The translations under genes were made by a program, and so were the position numbers. Below, one piece after another: positions 6,300-55,292 of a stretch of 64,000 nt of DNA; position 1 is the stretch's first letter, and the number at the start of each line of letters is the position of its first letter. The notes beneath the pieces are model-generated. The model worked only from the letters and a program-made list of their open reading frames with translations. It was not told where the DNA came from and made no database searches. Source of the stretch: Eledone cirrhosa. Lineage: Eukaryota. The stretch lies in NCBI GenBank assembly GCA_964016885.1, contig OZ024743.1, forward strand, positions 202,802,001 through 202,866,000. The letters are read 5' to 3'.

Positions 6300-7365
6300 T
6301 ATGCAAAGTTGTATTTAAATTGTTGGGTTACAACGAGTAAATATTTGTAACTGATATAAAAGCACTCAACAAGTATTTGGAGTATATTTACGATATTAAA
6401 TAAATGGAAACTATATTTAGAAAAACCATATTTATTTCATTATATATATTTCAGGGATATCATATTAAAAATATGGTATGCCTTCATCAGACAAAATACA
6501 ATATAAACAGTCTTATAAATAGATAGATTTGACATACCTTACAACTTCAACTTCCATTTAAAAAGTTGATTTGGTAGTGAAAAATGTTAGGGACAGTTTT
6601 AAAAAGAAAGAAATAAAGAAAGCGAAGAAAAAGAAGAAATGCATGCAACGAAAAACAGAGAGAGATAGATATAGAGAGATAGATTGAGAGAAGAAATTCA
6701 TGTAAAGAAAAAACAGAGAGAGATAGATAGAGAGAGAAAAAAGACAGAGGGAGATAGATAGAGAGAGAGAGAGAGAGAAGAGAGAGAGAGAAAAAATAAA
6801 GAGAGATAGATATAGATAGAGATAGAGAGAAAGAAAATAGGTAGTTGGGCACCAGTTGAATGACGTATCAATGATATATTTATTTATTTATTTATTTATT
6901 TAGTTCTAGTATTAAGGTAGAGAGAGATATATGTGGTTAGGAGAGAAAACAGCCGTTACATAGAGAGAAAAGAAAAATATCCAGAGATAAACGAGGCAGA
7001 TTTAAAACATTATGTTTCATCAATCTAAAAATATCAATTCGTATGAATTAGGTATTATAATGTAAATATCAGTATTCATGAATGAGACACGTATCAATAA
7101 TGTGTGAAAAATAATGATCATATGTCTAGTTTAAAATTCCTAGGTTTATAATCAGAGCTGAGATAAAAAAACTGAGATAAAAAACTGAGATAAAAAACTT
7201 CAAAAAAAATTGAAATACATAAGTATATATGCACTTTCATGAAAAAAGAAAAAGAAAATAGAAGGTTATCCCAGATTCGATACTATAGACATCCATGTGA
7301 ATTTACGTGATCAACTCTGCAAATTCCTATTTCACATGAAAACATTCTCATTGTGCTATAAAAAT
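6300..7365 (-). mobile_element. PLE 3' region/pLTR family A, left arm of a ~1 kb inverted repeat
   Basis: Reverse complement of 8526-9626 over ~1 kb. Carries an HHR. The 3' end abuts (TA)n. Confidence 0.85.
6433..6498 (-). ncRNA. Minimal type I hammerhead ribozyme (family A)
   Basis: UAUUUUGU-CUGAUGA-stem II (AGG..AUACCAUAU/AUAUGAUAU..CCU)-GAAA-UAUAUAUA^AUGAAAUA. Stem I is 8 bp with G-U pairs. Confidence 0.75.
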
Positions 7366-7404
7366 TCTAGTATACATATATGTGTACATACACACAAATA
7401 TATA

Positions 7405-8530
7405 TAGAATCTACATTAATTTTAACAATACTATTCTTGTCTTTACTCTACATGATTATCGTTCAAGCATAAATAGACAACAGATATCAATATATCAATA
7501 AAAATATTTAAAAAATAAAAAAAATATTAAAAATAAAACACAGTATGCCCCGCAAATCAACCACAGAAATCAACCCTTCAAAATTAATTGACAATATATT
7601 GCCAAGTTCATTATAAGCATCAGAATCAAAAGCAAACAAAACCAAAATTATTTACCAAATCCTGTCTAGCAGAAATCATTCCAAAAGTTTAGGATACCCA
7701 TTTGATCTACAGATGGTCTTATATTTATTATAGAAGTTTATGTAGTGTAAAATGTATTCGATATATTTGGAGCATCAGCTTTTAGGGTAGTTTAATTATT
7801 CATGAAGAATGTTTAAAAAAAAAAGAAATCGAAAGATTTATCGGCGAGTTTCATAAATAATTACAAATCATAAGTAAATATACTACATTTTAAATTTATA
7901 TTTATATTTAAAAGTTGAGTTCAATCTATGTCTGCAGCAACTGAATAAATTTGTCCGTAAATTAAGGGAATTTTTAGATTTTAGTATAAAGAATATCTTC
8001 TCCGCGCAGAGGTCACATGTCTCAGAAGATGAATTAAAAGGAATCCCTCTTGAGACTATATTCCAAGCCGTCGAATATCCAACGTTATCATGCTTAAGTT
8101 GCCAGAGTAAGCCTGATAGTGATGTTGAAGATTTTTTGCTTGGATCTGTGAAAGAATTCTTGTAGTTATTATAGCGAAGTTTAAATTCTGTCGAGGTGGA
8201 ACCAACATAGTTAAAAGAATTTAAGTCCGTTTTAACATTACAGTTGTATATTATATTTTTAACTAAGCAATTGTTATTTAACGGACATTTAGATCTATCT
8301 CTACAGTTACATTTGTTTACTTGGATATTATTTATGCTATTATCGGTATTTTGGCTAGGTTTTAAATCCCTATTATTTATTCTATTAATATTTTGTGCTA
8401 AATTTTTGGTGGATGAGTAAGTTAATTTTATAGTATGTCTATTGAAAATTGAGTGATACTTATGTGTTCTAGGGAAGCGATTATCAAGAGCATTAAAAAA
8501 TAGTTTAGCGATGTGGGTTTTAATGTTTTT
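7405..8530 (-). mobile_element. 5'-truncated PLE: RT thumb, GIY-YIG endonuclease and 3'UTR (pseudogenised)
   Basis: Manual minus-strand translation of ~8530-7895: KTHIAKLFFNALDNRFPRTHKYHSIFNRHTIKLTYS..CNCRDRSKCPLNNNCLVKNIIYNC..NYVGSTSTEFKLRYNNY..CDLCAEKIFFI..LNLR..CCRH. Confidence 0.85.
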
Positions 8531-9626
8531 ATATCACAATGAGAATGTTTTCATGTGAAATAGGAATTTGCAGAGTTGATCACGTAAATTCACATGGATG
8601 TCTATAGTATCGAATCTGGGATAACCTTCTATTTTCTTTTTCTTTTTTCATGAAAGTGCATATATACTTATGTATTTCAATTTTTTTTTGAAGTTTTTTA
8701 TCTCAGTTTTTTTATCTCAGTTTTTTTATCTCAGTTTTTTTAACTCAGTTTTTTTATCTCAGCTCTGATTATAAACCTAGGAATTTTAAACTATACATAT
8801 GATCATTATTTTTCACAGATTATTGATACGTGTCTCATTCATGAATATTGATATTTACATTATAATACCTAATTCATACGAATTGATATTTTTAGATTGA
8901 TGAAACATAATGTTTTAAATCTGCCTCGTTTATCTCTGGATATTTTTCTTTTCTCTCTATGTAACGGCTGTTTTCTCTCCTAACCACACATATCTCTCTC
9001 TACCTTAATGCTAGAACTAAATAAATAAATAAATAAATATATCATTGATACGTCATTCAACTGGTGCCCAACTACCTATTTTCTTTCTCTCTATCTCTAT
9101 CTATATCTATCTCTCTCTATTTTTCTCTCTCTCTCTCTCTCTCTCTCTCTCTCTCTCTCTCTCTCTCTCTTTCTCTCTCTATCTATCTCCCTCTGTCTTT
9201 TTTCTGTCTCTATCTCTATCTCTATCTATCTCTCTCTATTTTTTCTCTCACTCTCTATCTATCTCCCTCTGTCTTTTCTCTCTCTCTATCTATCTCTCTC
9301 TGTTTTTTCTTTATATGAATTTCTTCTCTCTATCTATCTCTCTATATCTATCTCTCTCTGTTTTTCGTTGCATGAATTTCTTCTTTTTCTTCGCTTTCTT
9401 TCTTTCTTTCTTTTTATAACTGTCCCTAACATTTTTCACTACCAAATCAACTTTTTAAATGGAAGTTGGAGTTGTAAGGTATGTCAAATCTATCTATTTA
9501 TAAGACTGTTTATATTGCATTTTGTCTGATGAAGGCATACCATATTTTTAATATGATATCCCTGAAATATATATAATGAAATAAATATGGTTTTATAAAT
9601 ATAGTTTCCATTTATTTAATATCGTA
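8526..9626 (+). mobile_element. PLE 3' region/pLTR family A, right (short) arm of the inverted repeat
   Basis: Reverse complement of 6389-7365. Ends at ...TTAATATCGTA followed by (TA)n. Confidence 0.85.
9519..9582 (+). ncRNA. Minimal type I hammerhead ribozyme (family A)
   Basis: ATTTTGT-CTGATGA(9526-9532)-stem II-GAAA(9564-9567)-TATATATA^ATGAAAT. Confidence 0.75.
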
Positions 9627-9685
9627 TATATATATATATATATATATATATATATATATATATATATATATATATATATATATAT

Positions 9686-53653: not shown

Positions 53654-53972
53654 GGATGATGATGATGATGATGATGATGATGATGATGATGAAGAAGATG
53701 ATGGTCATGATGATGATGGTGGTCATGATGACGATGACGATGATGATGTAGACGATGATGACGATGGTGTCAATAATGTGCCGTTAGTAGTAATAATAAT
53801 AATAATAATAATAATAATAATAATAATAATAATAAGAAGAAGAAGAAGAAGAAGAAGAAGAAGAAGTAGAAGAAGAAGAAGAAGAAGAAGAAGAAGAAGA
53901 ACAACAACAACAACAACAAAACAAAAACAACAACAACAACAAAAATAATAATAACAACAACAACAACAACAA
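53654..53972. repeat. Compound trinucleotide microsatellite (GAT)n-(AAT)n-(AGA)n-(ACA)n
   Basis: Directly visible. Confidence 0.95.
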
Positions 53973-54567
53973 AAATGTAGAAAATTGGAAAATAATCCAT
54001 GTAGGTTGTCTATCGTTCAGTACTTTGAAGTATGGATAGGAAGAATGGGCGACGCATGCGCCTCAGCTAATCGCTTGTTGGGTACGTGGACAACACATAT
54101 ACTGTTGAATGGTGTACATCAAAGAAATGTTCTAGAAAGAGTTCTATATTAATACTAACACGGCATATAACTTGGATCCAGTTTAATATAAGGTTATATA
54201 TTTTTACTAATAAATATATTTCAACTGCATGTAGATTTTTGATCATGCGCATACATACAAGCACATGCACGTGGGTACATATACACACACAGAGACATAC
54301 ACACACGCACATTCACACACACACACACACACACACACACACACACATACACACACACACACACACACACACACACACACATATATTAATAATTACAAAT
54401 ATGTGTAAACTAAAATCCGAAGAGGGCTCGATAAGGTTTATATATATATAAATTTATTTCCACAATAGATTAGCAAGTAATCCCCGAGGACGTGCGGTTC
54501 ACCAAACTAGACTATCTCAAGTCCGGTCTTCTGTTGTTTTGAATGTATCTTCTGAAACTATTATTAC

Positions 54568-54662
54568 TGTTGACTTTGCCTTTCATCCATACGGGGTCGA
54601 TAAAATAAAGTACCAGTAATGCACTGGATATTTGCTGGCCTTGCGCCTAAAATAGAAACATT
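54568..54662 (+). mobile_element. Partial SINE (3' half)
   Basis: Matches 52330-52425. Confidence 0.85.
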
Positions 54663-54850
54663 ATTACTATATATATATATATATATATAAATATATATAT
54701 ATATATATATATATATATATATATATATATATAGTAGAATAATCGAGTATCGAAAAATCGGCGCACGAGTTCACGATAAAAAAAATTCGAAATATATATA
54801 TATATATATATATATATATATATATATATATATATATATATATATATATA

Positions 54851-55292
54851 TGCAAAGTTTTATTTAAATTGTTGGGTTAACAACGAGTAAATATTTATAA
54901 CTGATATAAAAGCACTCAACAAGTATTTGGAGTATATTTACTATATTAAATAAATGCAAACTATATTTATAAAACCATATTTATTTCATTATATATATTT
55001 CAGGGATATCATATTAAAAATATGTTATGCCTTCTTCAGACAAAATACAATATAAACAGTCTTATAAATAGATAGATTCGACATACCTTTCAACTTCGAC
55101 TTCTATTTGAAAATCAACTTTTCAAATAGAAGTCGAAGTTGAAAGGTATGTCGAATCTATCTATTTATAAGACTGTTTATATTGTATTTTGTCTGAAGAA
55201 GGCATAACATATTTTTAATATGATATCCCTGAAATATATATAATGAAATAAATATGGTTTTATAAATATAGTTTCCATTTATTTAATATAGT
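54851..55292. mobile_element. Family A pLTR palindrome (arms 54940-55113 / 55119-55292, 5-nt loop) with HHRs at 54982-55047 (-) and 55185-55250 (+)
   Basis: Near-perfect ~174-bp inverted repeat. Both arms have a CTGAAGA core. The left arm extends ~90 bp further, to the full 3' end. Confidence 0.92.

Follow-up and report, generated by a model that had tools for sequence, protein, structure and literature searches.

Copies of several element families in Eledone cirrhosa end at one of two defined sites, and head-to-head insertions join an arm with the long end, which carries a 3' tail, to an arm with the short end, which lacks it, in nearly all pairs. From the sequences, we propose that two RTs probably load on two hairpins of one RNA, with both strands of a cut TA repeat serving as primers. 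The insertions in our window, a stretch of 64,000 nucleotides of contig OZ024743.1, are listed in Table 1.

Two defined ends joined head to head

An earlier note on this DNA had described three family A palindromes (in our delimitation 6302-9624, 19837-20273 and 54852-55291), whose coordinates and motifs proved correct. In each of them, one arm ends in ..TTTGCA and the other in ..TTAATAT(C/A)G, and (TA)n follows both. The family A short end lies 51 nt past the predicted hammerhead cut (position 9575, placed by eye); the long end follows about 89 nt further on. Family B short arms end at TTCC/TA, 80 nt short, in six of six window palindromes, and family D short arms end at ACTTACAT(T), about 58 nt short, as had been described for both. 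The copy at 15019, previously taken for a solo copy, has a second, tail-bearing arm at about 15200-15290. Since the turn points differ and a masked self-comparison found no common flanks, the three family A palindromes are not segmental duplicates, as the note had already argued. Segmental duplication or an assembly artefact as the source of the palindromes is contradicted by turn points, flanks and RAD-seq reads.

Table 1 Palindromes and associated features in the window
Feature	Positions	Strand	Remarks
Family A tailed (long-end) arm, 5'-truncated Hydra-clade PLE	6302..8533	-	Long end 6302/6303
Hairpin motif copy 1 (ACTC-stem-TT-GAGT), within tail	6364..6383	-	From alignment and pair counts of locus copies
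Linker CxCx5C, C-terminal GIY-YIG endonuclease and CxxC/CxH part of ORF	7883..8533	-	Motif list of PMC8557442, section 11
Family A tail-less (short-end) arm	8526..9624	+	Leftmost possible end G9624, rightmost A9626
Predicted hammerhead	9510..9590	+	CUGAUGA 9527, GAAA 9564, cut after 9575; by eye
Family A-type palindrome no. 4 (A2-like)	15022..15290		Short-end arm minus, 15022-15195; tail-bearing arm plus, 15200-15290; hairpin 15225-15244
Family A palindrome	19837..20273		Ends: short 19837 (left), long 20273 (right); plus-strand hairpin 20190-20209
Family A solo long-end copy	39354..39486	-	
Family A palindrome	54852..55291		Ends: long 54852 (left), short 55291 (right); turn ~55115; minus-strand hairpin 54914-54933
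Family B palindrome	3503..3670		Long end left, short end right
Family B palindrome	12650..12855		Long/short
Family B palindrome	31440..31620		Long/short
Family B palindrome	39952..40123		Long/short
Family B palindrome	48355..48560		Short/long
Family B palindrome	62783..62975		Long/short
Family D palindrome (non-coding, ~470-bp tandem unit with predicted hammerhead)	43963..44170		Long/short
Family D palindrome	44244..44530		Both ends short, exception to the rule
Family D tandem and inverted arm	55627..56698		Short end left, long end right; predicted hammerhead 56334-56378

Such ends number in the tens of thousands in the Eledone cirrhosa genome. In one family A subfamily, 3,180 arms enter the tail genome-wide, compared to 3,346 that stop at the short end. 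A long and a short end are joined in 59 of 60 head-to-head pairs (58 by script, with one mis-clustered pair corrected by hand). This set omits 13 of 100 short-end rows that lie beyond the last long-end row, and 56 of 187 arms are without a partner by exact pattern match. L093 was omitted as a duplicate of L092, the HMM used included two odd copies (L092 and L123), so that L123 was counted as long though its tail is interrupted. Within loci L061-L133, a sample overlapping the 60-pair set, 39 of 40 pairs are long/short (p = 4e-11 against 50:50). Families B, C, D and E show the same two-end behaviour as family A, with long/short pairing in all seven resolved pairs of family E. Six of 81 pairs were called same-type; L142, L266 and L267 are pattern mis-calls, L002 is ambiguous, and L280 and a family D pair of the window are real. 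The asymmetry, which the earlier note had called invariable, is found in nearly all pairs and fails at 44244-44530, with two short ends, and in L202 (family A) and L280 (family B), with a tail on both arms. RAD-seq reads of three other samples under the same species label contain TA-capped loose short ends (5,077, 5,688 and 7,638 reads) as well as strand-changing joints; as RAD reads cluster at restriction sites, these counts represent presence, not frequency. Genome-wide, end counts and pairing uphold the claim of two defined termini per family, set by a programmed process and not by random truncation.

Identity of the elements

Judged by their sequence motifs and target, families A, B and C are Hydra-clade Penelope-like elements (PLEs). 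The family B ORF is intact and comprises 718 amino acids without the first Met, with YRDD at 347 and NVIY..YIG at 589-607. Family A has the same RT and C-terminal GIY-YIG ORF in two frames, broken at a C run, and the proteins of A and B are 40% identical. Pfam scans of ORF pieces and full proteins gave nothing above cut-off, so the domains are read from motifs. Family B has RWR at 36 and DKT at 116, both of which also occur in family A; among 117 homologues, DKT is present in 109 and RW[KR] in 112. Family B further features a CNCPDRSIC linker, a single Cys between VIY and YIG, CNLC..E and CKH. The CxCx5C linker and the CxxC and CxH motifs, which lie close to the conserved E and N, are found in 115, 114 and 109 of the 117 homologues, respectively, and two Cys inside the GIY-YIG core in none of the 117, of which 23 were not parsed. 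Insertion occurs into (TA)n, as is characteristic of the Hydra clade.

The published Hydra clade (Craig et al. 2021, PMC8557442) shares with these elements RW[KR], DKT, the CxCx5C linker, the lack of a CCHH cysteine pair, a terminal region with CxxC and CxH, a pLTR hammerhead (predicted here), (TA)n targets and 3.1-3.9-kb units, although A and B units are longer than the '<3 kb' given there. The Neptune clade, our first guess, is ruled out by motifs: Neptune and Nematis have CCHH, a CX2-5CxxC linker and DKG, whereas A and B show DKT, CxCx5C and no core cysteine pair. Naiad and Chlamys carry an N-terminal endonuclease, while the endonuclease here is C-terminal.

Partial tandems (pLTR) with an inverted 5' copy occur at L081, L100, L118, L194 and L203-L207. 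Hammerhead core motifs were recognised by eye in A, D and L271 (a metagenome contig, 37% protein identity), with an atypical core in B. An Rfam scan of the window gave no match at the gathering score, and the hammerheads fold no better than shuffles, except for the copy at 20065 (z -1.8), in which stems I and II fold. Family D consists of non-coding tandems of about 470-500 bp, with a hammerhead predicted in one unit.

A duplicated hairpin motif just past both ends

In families A, B and C, a bulged hairpin motif occurs in two copies, and each end precedes one of them by 7-10 nt; the tail length therefore equals the hairpin spacing. Spacing and tail length are 91 and 89 nt in A, 94 and 94 nt in A2, 78 and 80 nt in B, and 108 and 108 nt in C. 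With a motif pattern derived from families A, B and C, the sense strand of A, B and L271 yields two matches per full unit, against 0.14-0.30 expected from shuffles. Over 14 aligned rows, 90.8% of cells are paired, with 18 double changes (0 of 500 shuffles) and a conserved 2-nt bulge, a control that is lenient because the rows are related. The loop varies from 3 to about 17 nt around the fixed bulge. Taken singly, the hairpins show weak folds (z -1.25 to -2.8), and other structures result when the whole junction of B, C or L271 is folded.

The long end of family C lies 7 nt before hairpin 2, matching a prediction written beforehand. The short-end prediction failed as stated, with the end 25 nt before the chosen CTC, and fits only once the motif is re-read as a longer hairpin. 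Both motif copies are present in L271, where the insertion terminates immediately ahead of copy 2. Foreign loci number at least eight; three have a near-whole ORF and apparently belong to one family, and five are short endonuclease matches. By eye, four of six published Hydra consensi contain the motif, with both copies at the start of Hydra-1_Ajap, one copy in the 3' tail of Hydra-2_Amil and of Hydra-2_Ajap, and variant copies in Hydra-1_Crog; none was seen by eye in Hydra-1_Obim or in Hydra-1_Amil, whose consensus is 5'-incomplete. Families D and E lack the hairpin motif, yet keep the long/short pairing. The long end of L216 appears to fall inside hairpin 2, which is attributed to a short deletion in L216 on the basis of most of 20 other junction loci. 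The hammerhead cut was rejected as a ruler for the short end, as its distance upstream of that end differs between A (51 nt) and B (17 nt), while the hairpin offset is constant at 7-10 nt. The distance in B was taken by eye from its atypical core.

Two mechanisms had been offered for the two termini, internal priming and endonuclease nicking. We favour internal priming in view of the two hairpin copies and of the two RT start sites that a relative shows in vitro (PMC11167929), which also speak against nicking. In a resolution by the endonuclease, both arms would be made with a tail, and the GIY-YIG endonuclease would recognise the motif in the new DNA and cut one arm at the short site before target joining. 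The rare two-tail insertions (L202, L280) would fit such a step, as would the requirement of the D. virilis tail for endonuclease recognition, cited in PMC11167929. We nevertheless regard it as unlikely: the long end has the same motif and offset though there is nothing to remove, the variable loop around a fixed bulge suits a folded strand over a duplex site, and in family A, arms do not end at the longer TA runs found 15-55 nt upstream.

Template and reach of the two arms

Arms diverge by a median of 0.8% within an insertion, compared to typically 4-5% between insertions (33 pairs). The C/T variant is concordant between arms in 60 of 60 pairs (59 by script, one pair hand-corrected). Gene conversion is an alternative source of arm likeness.

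Among 27 family A pairs, the short-end arm is the longer-reaching in 10 and the tailed arm in 13, and 4 are equal (L130, included in this count, was judged with the L061-L133 data). In L100 and L118, the tail-less arm exceeds the tailed arm by more than a whole unit. The arm that the earlier note called short is short at its 3' end, but often extends deeper into the element than its tailed partner. The one-sided 'second-end resolution' suggested there fits poorly, because the longer arm can be either one.

The reach of the arms also bears on fold-back or antisense self-priming, already proposed in the Discussion of PMC3846280, in which the cDNA would fold back, or an antisense transcript be copied, and the second arm would be copied from the first up to a fixed stop. 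Near-perfect hairpin insertions (54852-55291 and most of family B), near-identical arms and 14-25-bp fold-backs at some 5' junctions would agree with this. However, in 10 of the 27 pairs the tail-less arm has sequence missing from the tailed arm, which in turn has the tail; as each holds sequence missing from the other, neither was copied from the other, and fold-back is excluded for these 10. Since either arm can reach further (10 against 13), simple fold-back is excluded, and we consider the whole class of explanations improbable.

Two separate RNA-protein particles from one source locus could instead prime the two strands, with the asymmetry arising from protein contacts and not from two sites on one RNA. 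Variant sharing is compatible with this, as two RNAs of a single active locus would share variants just as one RNA would, and two enzymes would not have to copy the same RNA stretch. Yet a free choice by equals would yield about half same-type pairs, and 1 of 60 was observed. Two particles would require an extra rule, whereas two sites on one RNA yield the pattern directly, and we give the two-particle explanation little credence.

Target site

Six exact informative target duplications (11, 13, 14, 15, 15 and 15 bp) are present among 81 pairs, against about 0.3 with shuffled partners. In family A, 13-15-bp duplications occur at interrupted TA tracts, so that (TA)n, formerly described as a cap, is better read as the target. 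The duplication is exact in only 5 of 15 informative family A pairs, and family B pairs show no target duplication of 6 bp or more. At the 6302 insertion, the left-flank TT is absent from the right flank.

Every end matches (TA)n by 2-6 nt, as would be the case if the ends were chance positions of short TA matches between element and target, with no dedicated signal. The elements are rich in TA words, yet two defined sites account for the ends of 119 of 127 arms. As chance matches would also leave the pairing and the duplicated motif unexplained, we judge them a very improbable cause.

Proposed insertion from two hairpins

We postulate that the transcript crosses the pLTR-ORF junction and would carry both hairpins, with one RT-endonuclease protein bound to each. 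A staggered cut in (TA)n would produce two 3' ends, which may pair over 2-6 nt with the UA/UAU(AU) immediately ahead of each hairpin. Each enzyme would move towards the 5' end of the RNA as it copies and would stop independently of the other, the rear one displacing the front cDNA, and the two cDNA ends would be joined head to head and then filled in. The tail would correspond to the RNA between the two start sites, and solo copies to insertions in which one priming failed or stayed very short.

In L1 twin priming, both target strands prime reverse transcription on one RNA, resulting in an inversion; there, the position of the second site varies and the overlap between the two cDNAs is very slight. 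Here, in contrast, both sites are fixed and the cDNAs would overlap fully, resulting in a palindrome. A broader proposal, evenly balanced in our judgement, is that programmed twin priming is the way in which PLEs, the retroelements most closely related to telomerase, integrate. A pair of RT-endonuclease proteins would occupy two repeated signals in the RNA, cut both target strands at a distance of about 15 bp and copy one RNA twice at the same time. The Hydra-clade signal would then be a bulged GCUC/GAGC hairpin kept across several animal phyla. If true, programmed twin priming would account in a single step for the tail and the head-to-head palindrome as well as for the target duplication and the requirement for RNA past the element end.

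Relation to known systems

The additional 3' piece is the published optional PLE tail, and both mechanisms offered in the earlier note are already in print (PMC8557442, PMC11167929). This tail has been described as 31 bp and optional on one inverted pLTR (PMC3846280), and as 30-40 bp, often at only one end (PMC8557442). As in these descriptions, head-to-head insertions here have the extension at one of their ends, and either arm can carry it. In our families, however, it measures 44-108 nt and is present on exactly one end in nearly all pairs, which turns an 'optional' tail into a near-fixed rule.

For PAc, a Poseidon element of Anolis carolinensis, both target strands are cut and extended in vitro, and two internal RT starts bound the tail (Frangieh et al. 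2024, PMC11167929). The reaction uses uncut RNA as template and depends on RNA 3' of the start. The two internal starts bounding a tail resemble the arrangement described here. PAc belongs to another clade, and its starts are located within the ORF, in an AC-rich stem-loop that shares no homology with the target, whereas the ends here precede the ORF and match TA over 2-6 nt. The accessible main text of that study does not tie the start sites one to each insertion end and describes no repeated motif.

Both PMC8557442 and PMC11167929 list the origin of the PLE tail and of the inverted repeats among the open questions, and the accessible text of PMC8557442 does not mention a duplicated hairpin, obligate long/short pairing or target duplications. 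We found no description of a duplicated hairpin or of PLE twin priming in the literature, although subscription papers, GenBank-format supplements or figure images could hold one. Near-obligate pairing, ends before two hairpin copies, the reach of either arm and the 13-15-bp target duplications were likewise not found in the print accessible to us. The motif names a candidate RNA signal of 20-30 nt with exact offsets, and for annotation the two ends and the motif define the element boundaries. With non-coding tandem units of about 470 bp and its predicted hammerhead, family D resembles the non-LTR retrozymes (bioRxiv 10.64898/2026.07.22.740005), which consist of tandem non-coding units with a type I hammerhead in each. 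Two ends and head-to-head pairs are not mentioned in the accessible text of that study; in family D, both are present.

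Two 3' ends and their pairing

The window belongs to a 3.0 Gb animal genome and abounds in (TA)n tracts and short repeats. Re-reading its sequence bears out the end positions and distances given by an earlier note for the palindromes of families A and B, both Penelope-like elements (PLEs), and family D; the family B ends recounted in the window palindromes agree with those distances. The copy at 15019, taken there as solo, is a fourth family A-type palindrome. The proposed rule that the short arm always stops at the same base holds for the most part; one family D palindrome is an exception, with two short ends.

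Two defined ends per family, as the note had expected, rather than scatter, are found among the genomic copies. The 40-nt core upstream of the family A short end has 13,244 exact matches in the genome, and in one subfamily 3,180 arms continue into the tail of the long end while 3,346 stop, turning into TA. Around the first 100 core matches on contig 1, a profile recovered 127 arms, of which 64 have the short end and 55 the long end; 3 continue into the body of the element and 5 have other ends. Among the first 30 core matches taken for each, family B has 15 long, 12 short and 3 other ends (two of the three vary on the main ends), family C has 9 long ends (10 when judged by eye) with 12 short, 6 internal and 3 other, and family D has 9 long, 8 short, 10 internal and 3 other.

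Head-to-head arms join a long to a short end in 39 of 40 pairs of the contig 1 sample; in the remaining pair the partner ends a few bases beyond the short site. A second sample of 187 arms, drawn from listed subfamily positions and partly from the same region, contained 60 pairs, 59 of them long/short after hand correction. The script had tallied 58 long/short, one long/long and one short/short, the last through faulty clustering, as the real partner there is a long arm. Across all families, the pattern count gave 75 long/short among 81 pairs; of the rest, 2 are genuine same-type pairs, 1 is ambiguous and 3 were mis-called. Family E pairs were long/short in all 7 resolved cases, and reads of three other samples also contain short ends joined to TA and strand-changing joints.

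The target

The (TA)n had been regarded as a cap. Interruptions of the TA tract near the junction recur on the opposite side in 6 of the 81 pairs, of which 41 are informative, whereas shuffled partners give about 0.3 such cases. Five of the six are family A insertions with duplications of 13-15 bp; L070 adds one duplication by eye. Judged from these flanks, (TA)n is better read as the target. Against this, no exact duplication occurs in 10 of 15 informative family A pairs, and none is seen in family B pairs or in the first family A palindrome. At some long ends a single TA precedes (CA)n or (GA)n, and at others TA is missing.

A probable single template and two syntheses

Within an insertion, the two arms differ by a median of 0.8%, compared with typically 4-5% from arms elsewhere (33 pairs, in three of which the arms did not fill the comparison window), and a C/T variant is common to both arms of an insertion. 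This likeness points to one RNA or one source locus, with gene conversion as another possible source. The arm with the greater reach is the tail-less one in 10 of 27 family A pairs and the tailed one in 13; in the other 4 both extend equally far. Pairs with a longer tail-less arm require two reverse transcriptions, as neither of their arms can have been copied from its partner; fold-back is improbable. Delivery by two particles seems about equally doubtful. Bare microhomology as the whole explanation is very hard to credit. The joints between arms show 0-13 nt of overlap or small inserts.

In many family A arms (L001-L030, L061-L133) the stop lies at a distance of 215-280 nt from the long end, possibly a sign of a transcript start or of RT pausing. 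The 5' junctions of L068, L069 and L097 carry 14-25 bp fold-back palindromes at the arm 5' end, before the join to target or other arm. In most family B arms the stop precedes the predicted hammerhead cut by 35-60 nt, which would make uncut RNA the template.

A duplicated hairpin motif

At tandem junctions, the sequence found past the short end occurs again directly beyond the long end. The motif comprises a 4-bp stem of (A/G)CTC with GAG(T/C), a 2-nt 3'-side bulge, a further stem and a loop whose size varies. Measured from the leftmost possible junction, CTC lies at offsets of 8 and 10 in A, 9 and 9 in the A-like subfamily A2, 9 and 7 in B, and 7-8 and 7 in C. Immediately past each junction come 2-6 nt of TA, TAT or ATATAT, to which the target primer could anneal. 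The distance between the hairpins matches the length of the tail in all four families (91/89, 94/94, 78/80 and 108/108).

On the sense strand the motif occurs twice per unit in A, B and the foreign metagenome PLE L271, versus 0.14-0.30 by shuffling; L271 is the only independent case, because the pattern was drawn from A, B and C. Pair counts show double changes at 4 of 7 base pairs, in aligned rows related to one another. For family C, a prewritten prediction was correct at the long end and failed as worded at the short end, the wrong CTC of a longer hairpin having been chosen. By eye, the motif is present in 4 of 6 published Hydra consensi (sea cucumber, coral, copepod). A further Hydra-like family (L153:2799-2834) has the hairpin motif ahead of its ORF.

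Families D and E lack the motif; their tail is instead able to pair with sequence just beyond the long end. In family E (L333), tail GTGAACT can pair with AGTTCAC. In family D (L180 and the window copy at 55627-56698), GAGTGAG of the tail is able to pair with a CTCACTC that lies about 30 nt beyond the long end, so that this end is enclosed, a layout shared with family E.

Mechanism and published background

The extra piece carried by a single arm is the PLE tail. PMC3846280 treats the tail as an option on one of the inverted pLTRs and proposes self-priming, while PMC8557442 describes a tail often at one end only, ascribed to endonuclease resolution. PMC11167929 reports a predicted dimer and, in vitro, a tail delimited by two internal start sites of the RT, with both strands cut and extended. 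The two defined ends and both candidate mechanisms are thus already published; the claim of the earlier note, as written, is a known feature, well observed.

Given the observed pairing rule, motif positions, arm lengths and target duplications, we consider twin priming at two fixed RNA sites the simplest and the probable account of ends, pairing, arms and duplications; endonuclease resolution appears unlikely. Twin priming would involve hairpins bound by protein, a single RNA instead of two as template, and joining of the two arms. Our searches of openly available article text found neither a duplicated hairpin nor twin priming described in PLEs. The pairing rule and a candidate RNA signal are added to the known tail, and are directly testable.

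Identity of the elements

Whole units from tandem copies measure 3.7-4.0 kb in family A and 3.1 kb in family B, where the ORF is intact. The three family A copies read (L081, L100, L118) change frame at a C run between RT and linker (WFAPPP), and none has an intact ORF. The motifs DKT, RW[KR], a CxCx5C linker, CxxC and CxH, an endonuclease core without the cysteine pair, and TA targets match, as a motif-based assignment, the Hydra clade described in section 11 of PMC8557442. Family D is a non-coding tandem unit with a predicted hammerhead. Family E, whose core has 1,698 matches and whose two ends are separated by 44 nt, carries DKG, GxKF and a pair of cysteines within the endonuclease core, and by these motifs is of the canonical, non-Hydra PLE type (DKG/CCHH).

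Other repeats

The SINE-like repeat also breaks family E tails in L312 and L336. The 311-bp direct repeat and the short inverted repeat after a TA tract are possibly further PLE ends.

Features in the window
Feature	Position	Strand	Remarks
Family A palindrome	6302-9624		first of family A
Family E	9687-12135	minus	adjoins first palindrome
Family D palindrome	44244-44530		two short ends
Family D	55627-56698		tail pairing
Broken LINE-type element	15558-18323	minus	endonuclease and RT pieces
Broken LINE-type element	23000-26417	plus	endonuclease and RT pieces
SINE-like repeat	1487-1587, 37706-39077, 52202-52434, 54559-54659, 56938-58799		about 200 bp, many copies
Inverted pair	44730-45172		152 bp, 93% alike, facing TA-rich centre
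Direct repeat	21821-22470		311 bp, short inverted start
Short inverted repeat	258-415		after TA tract
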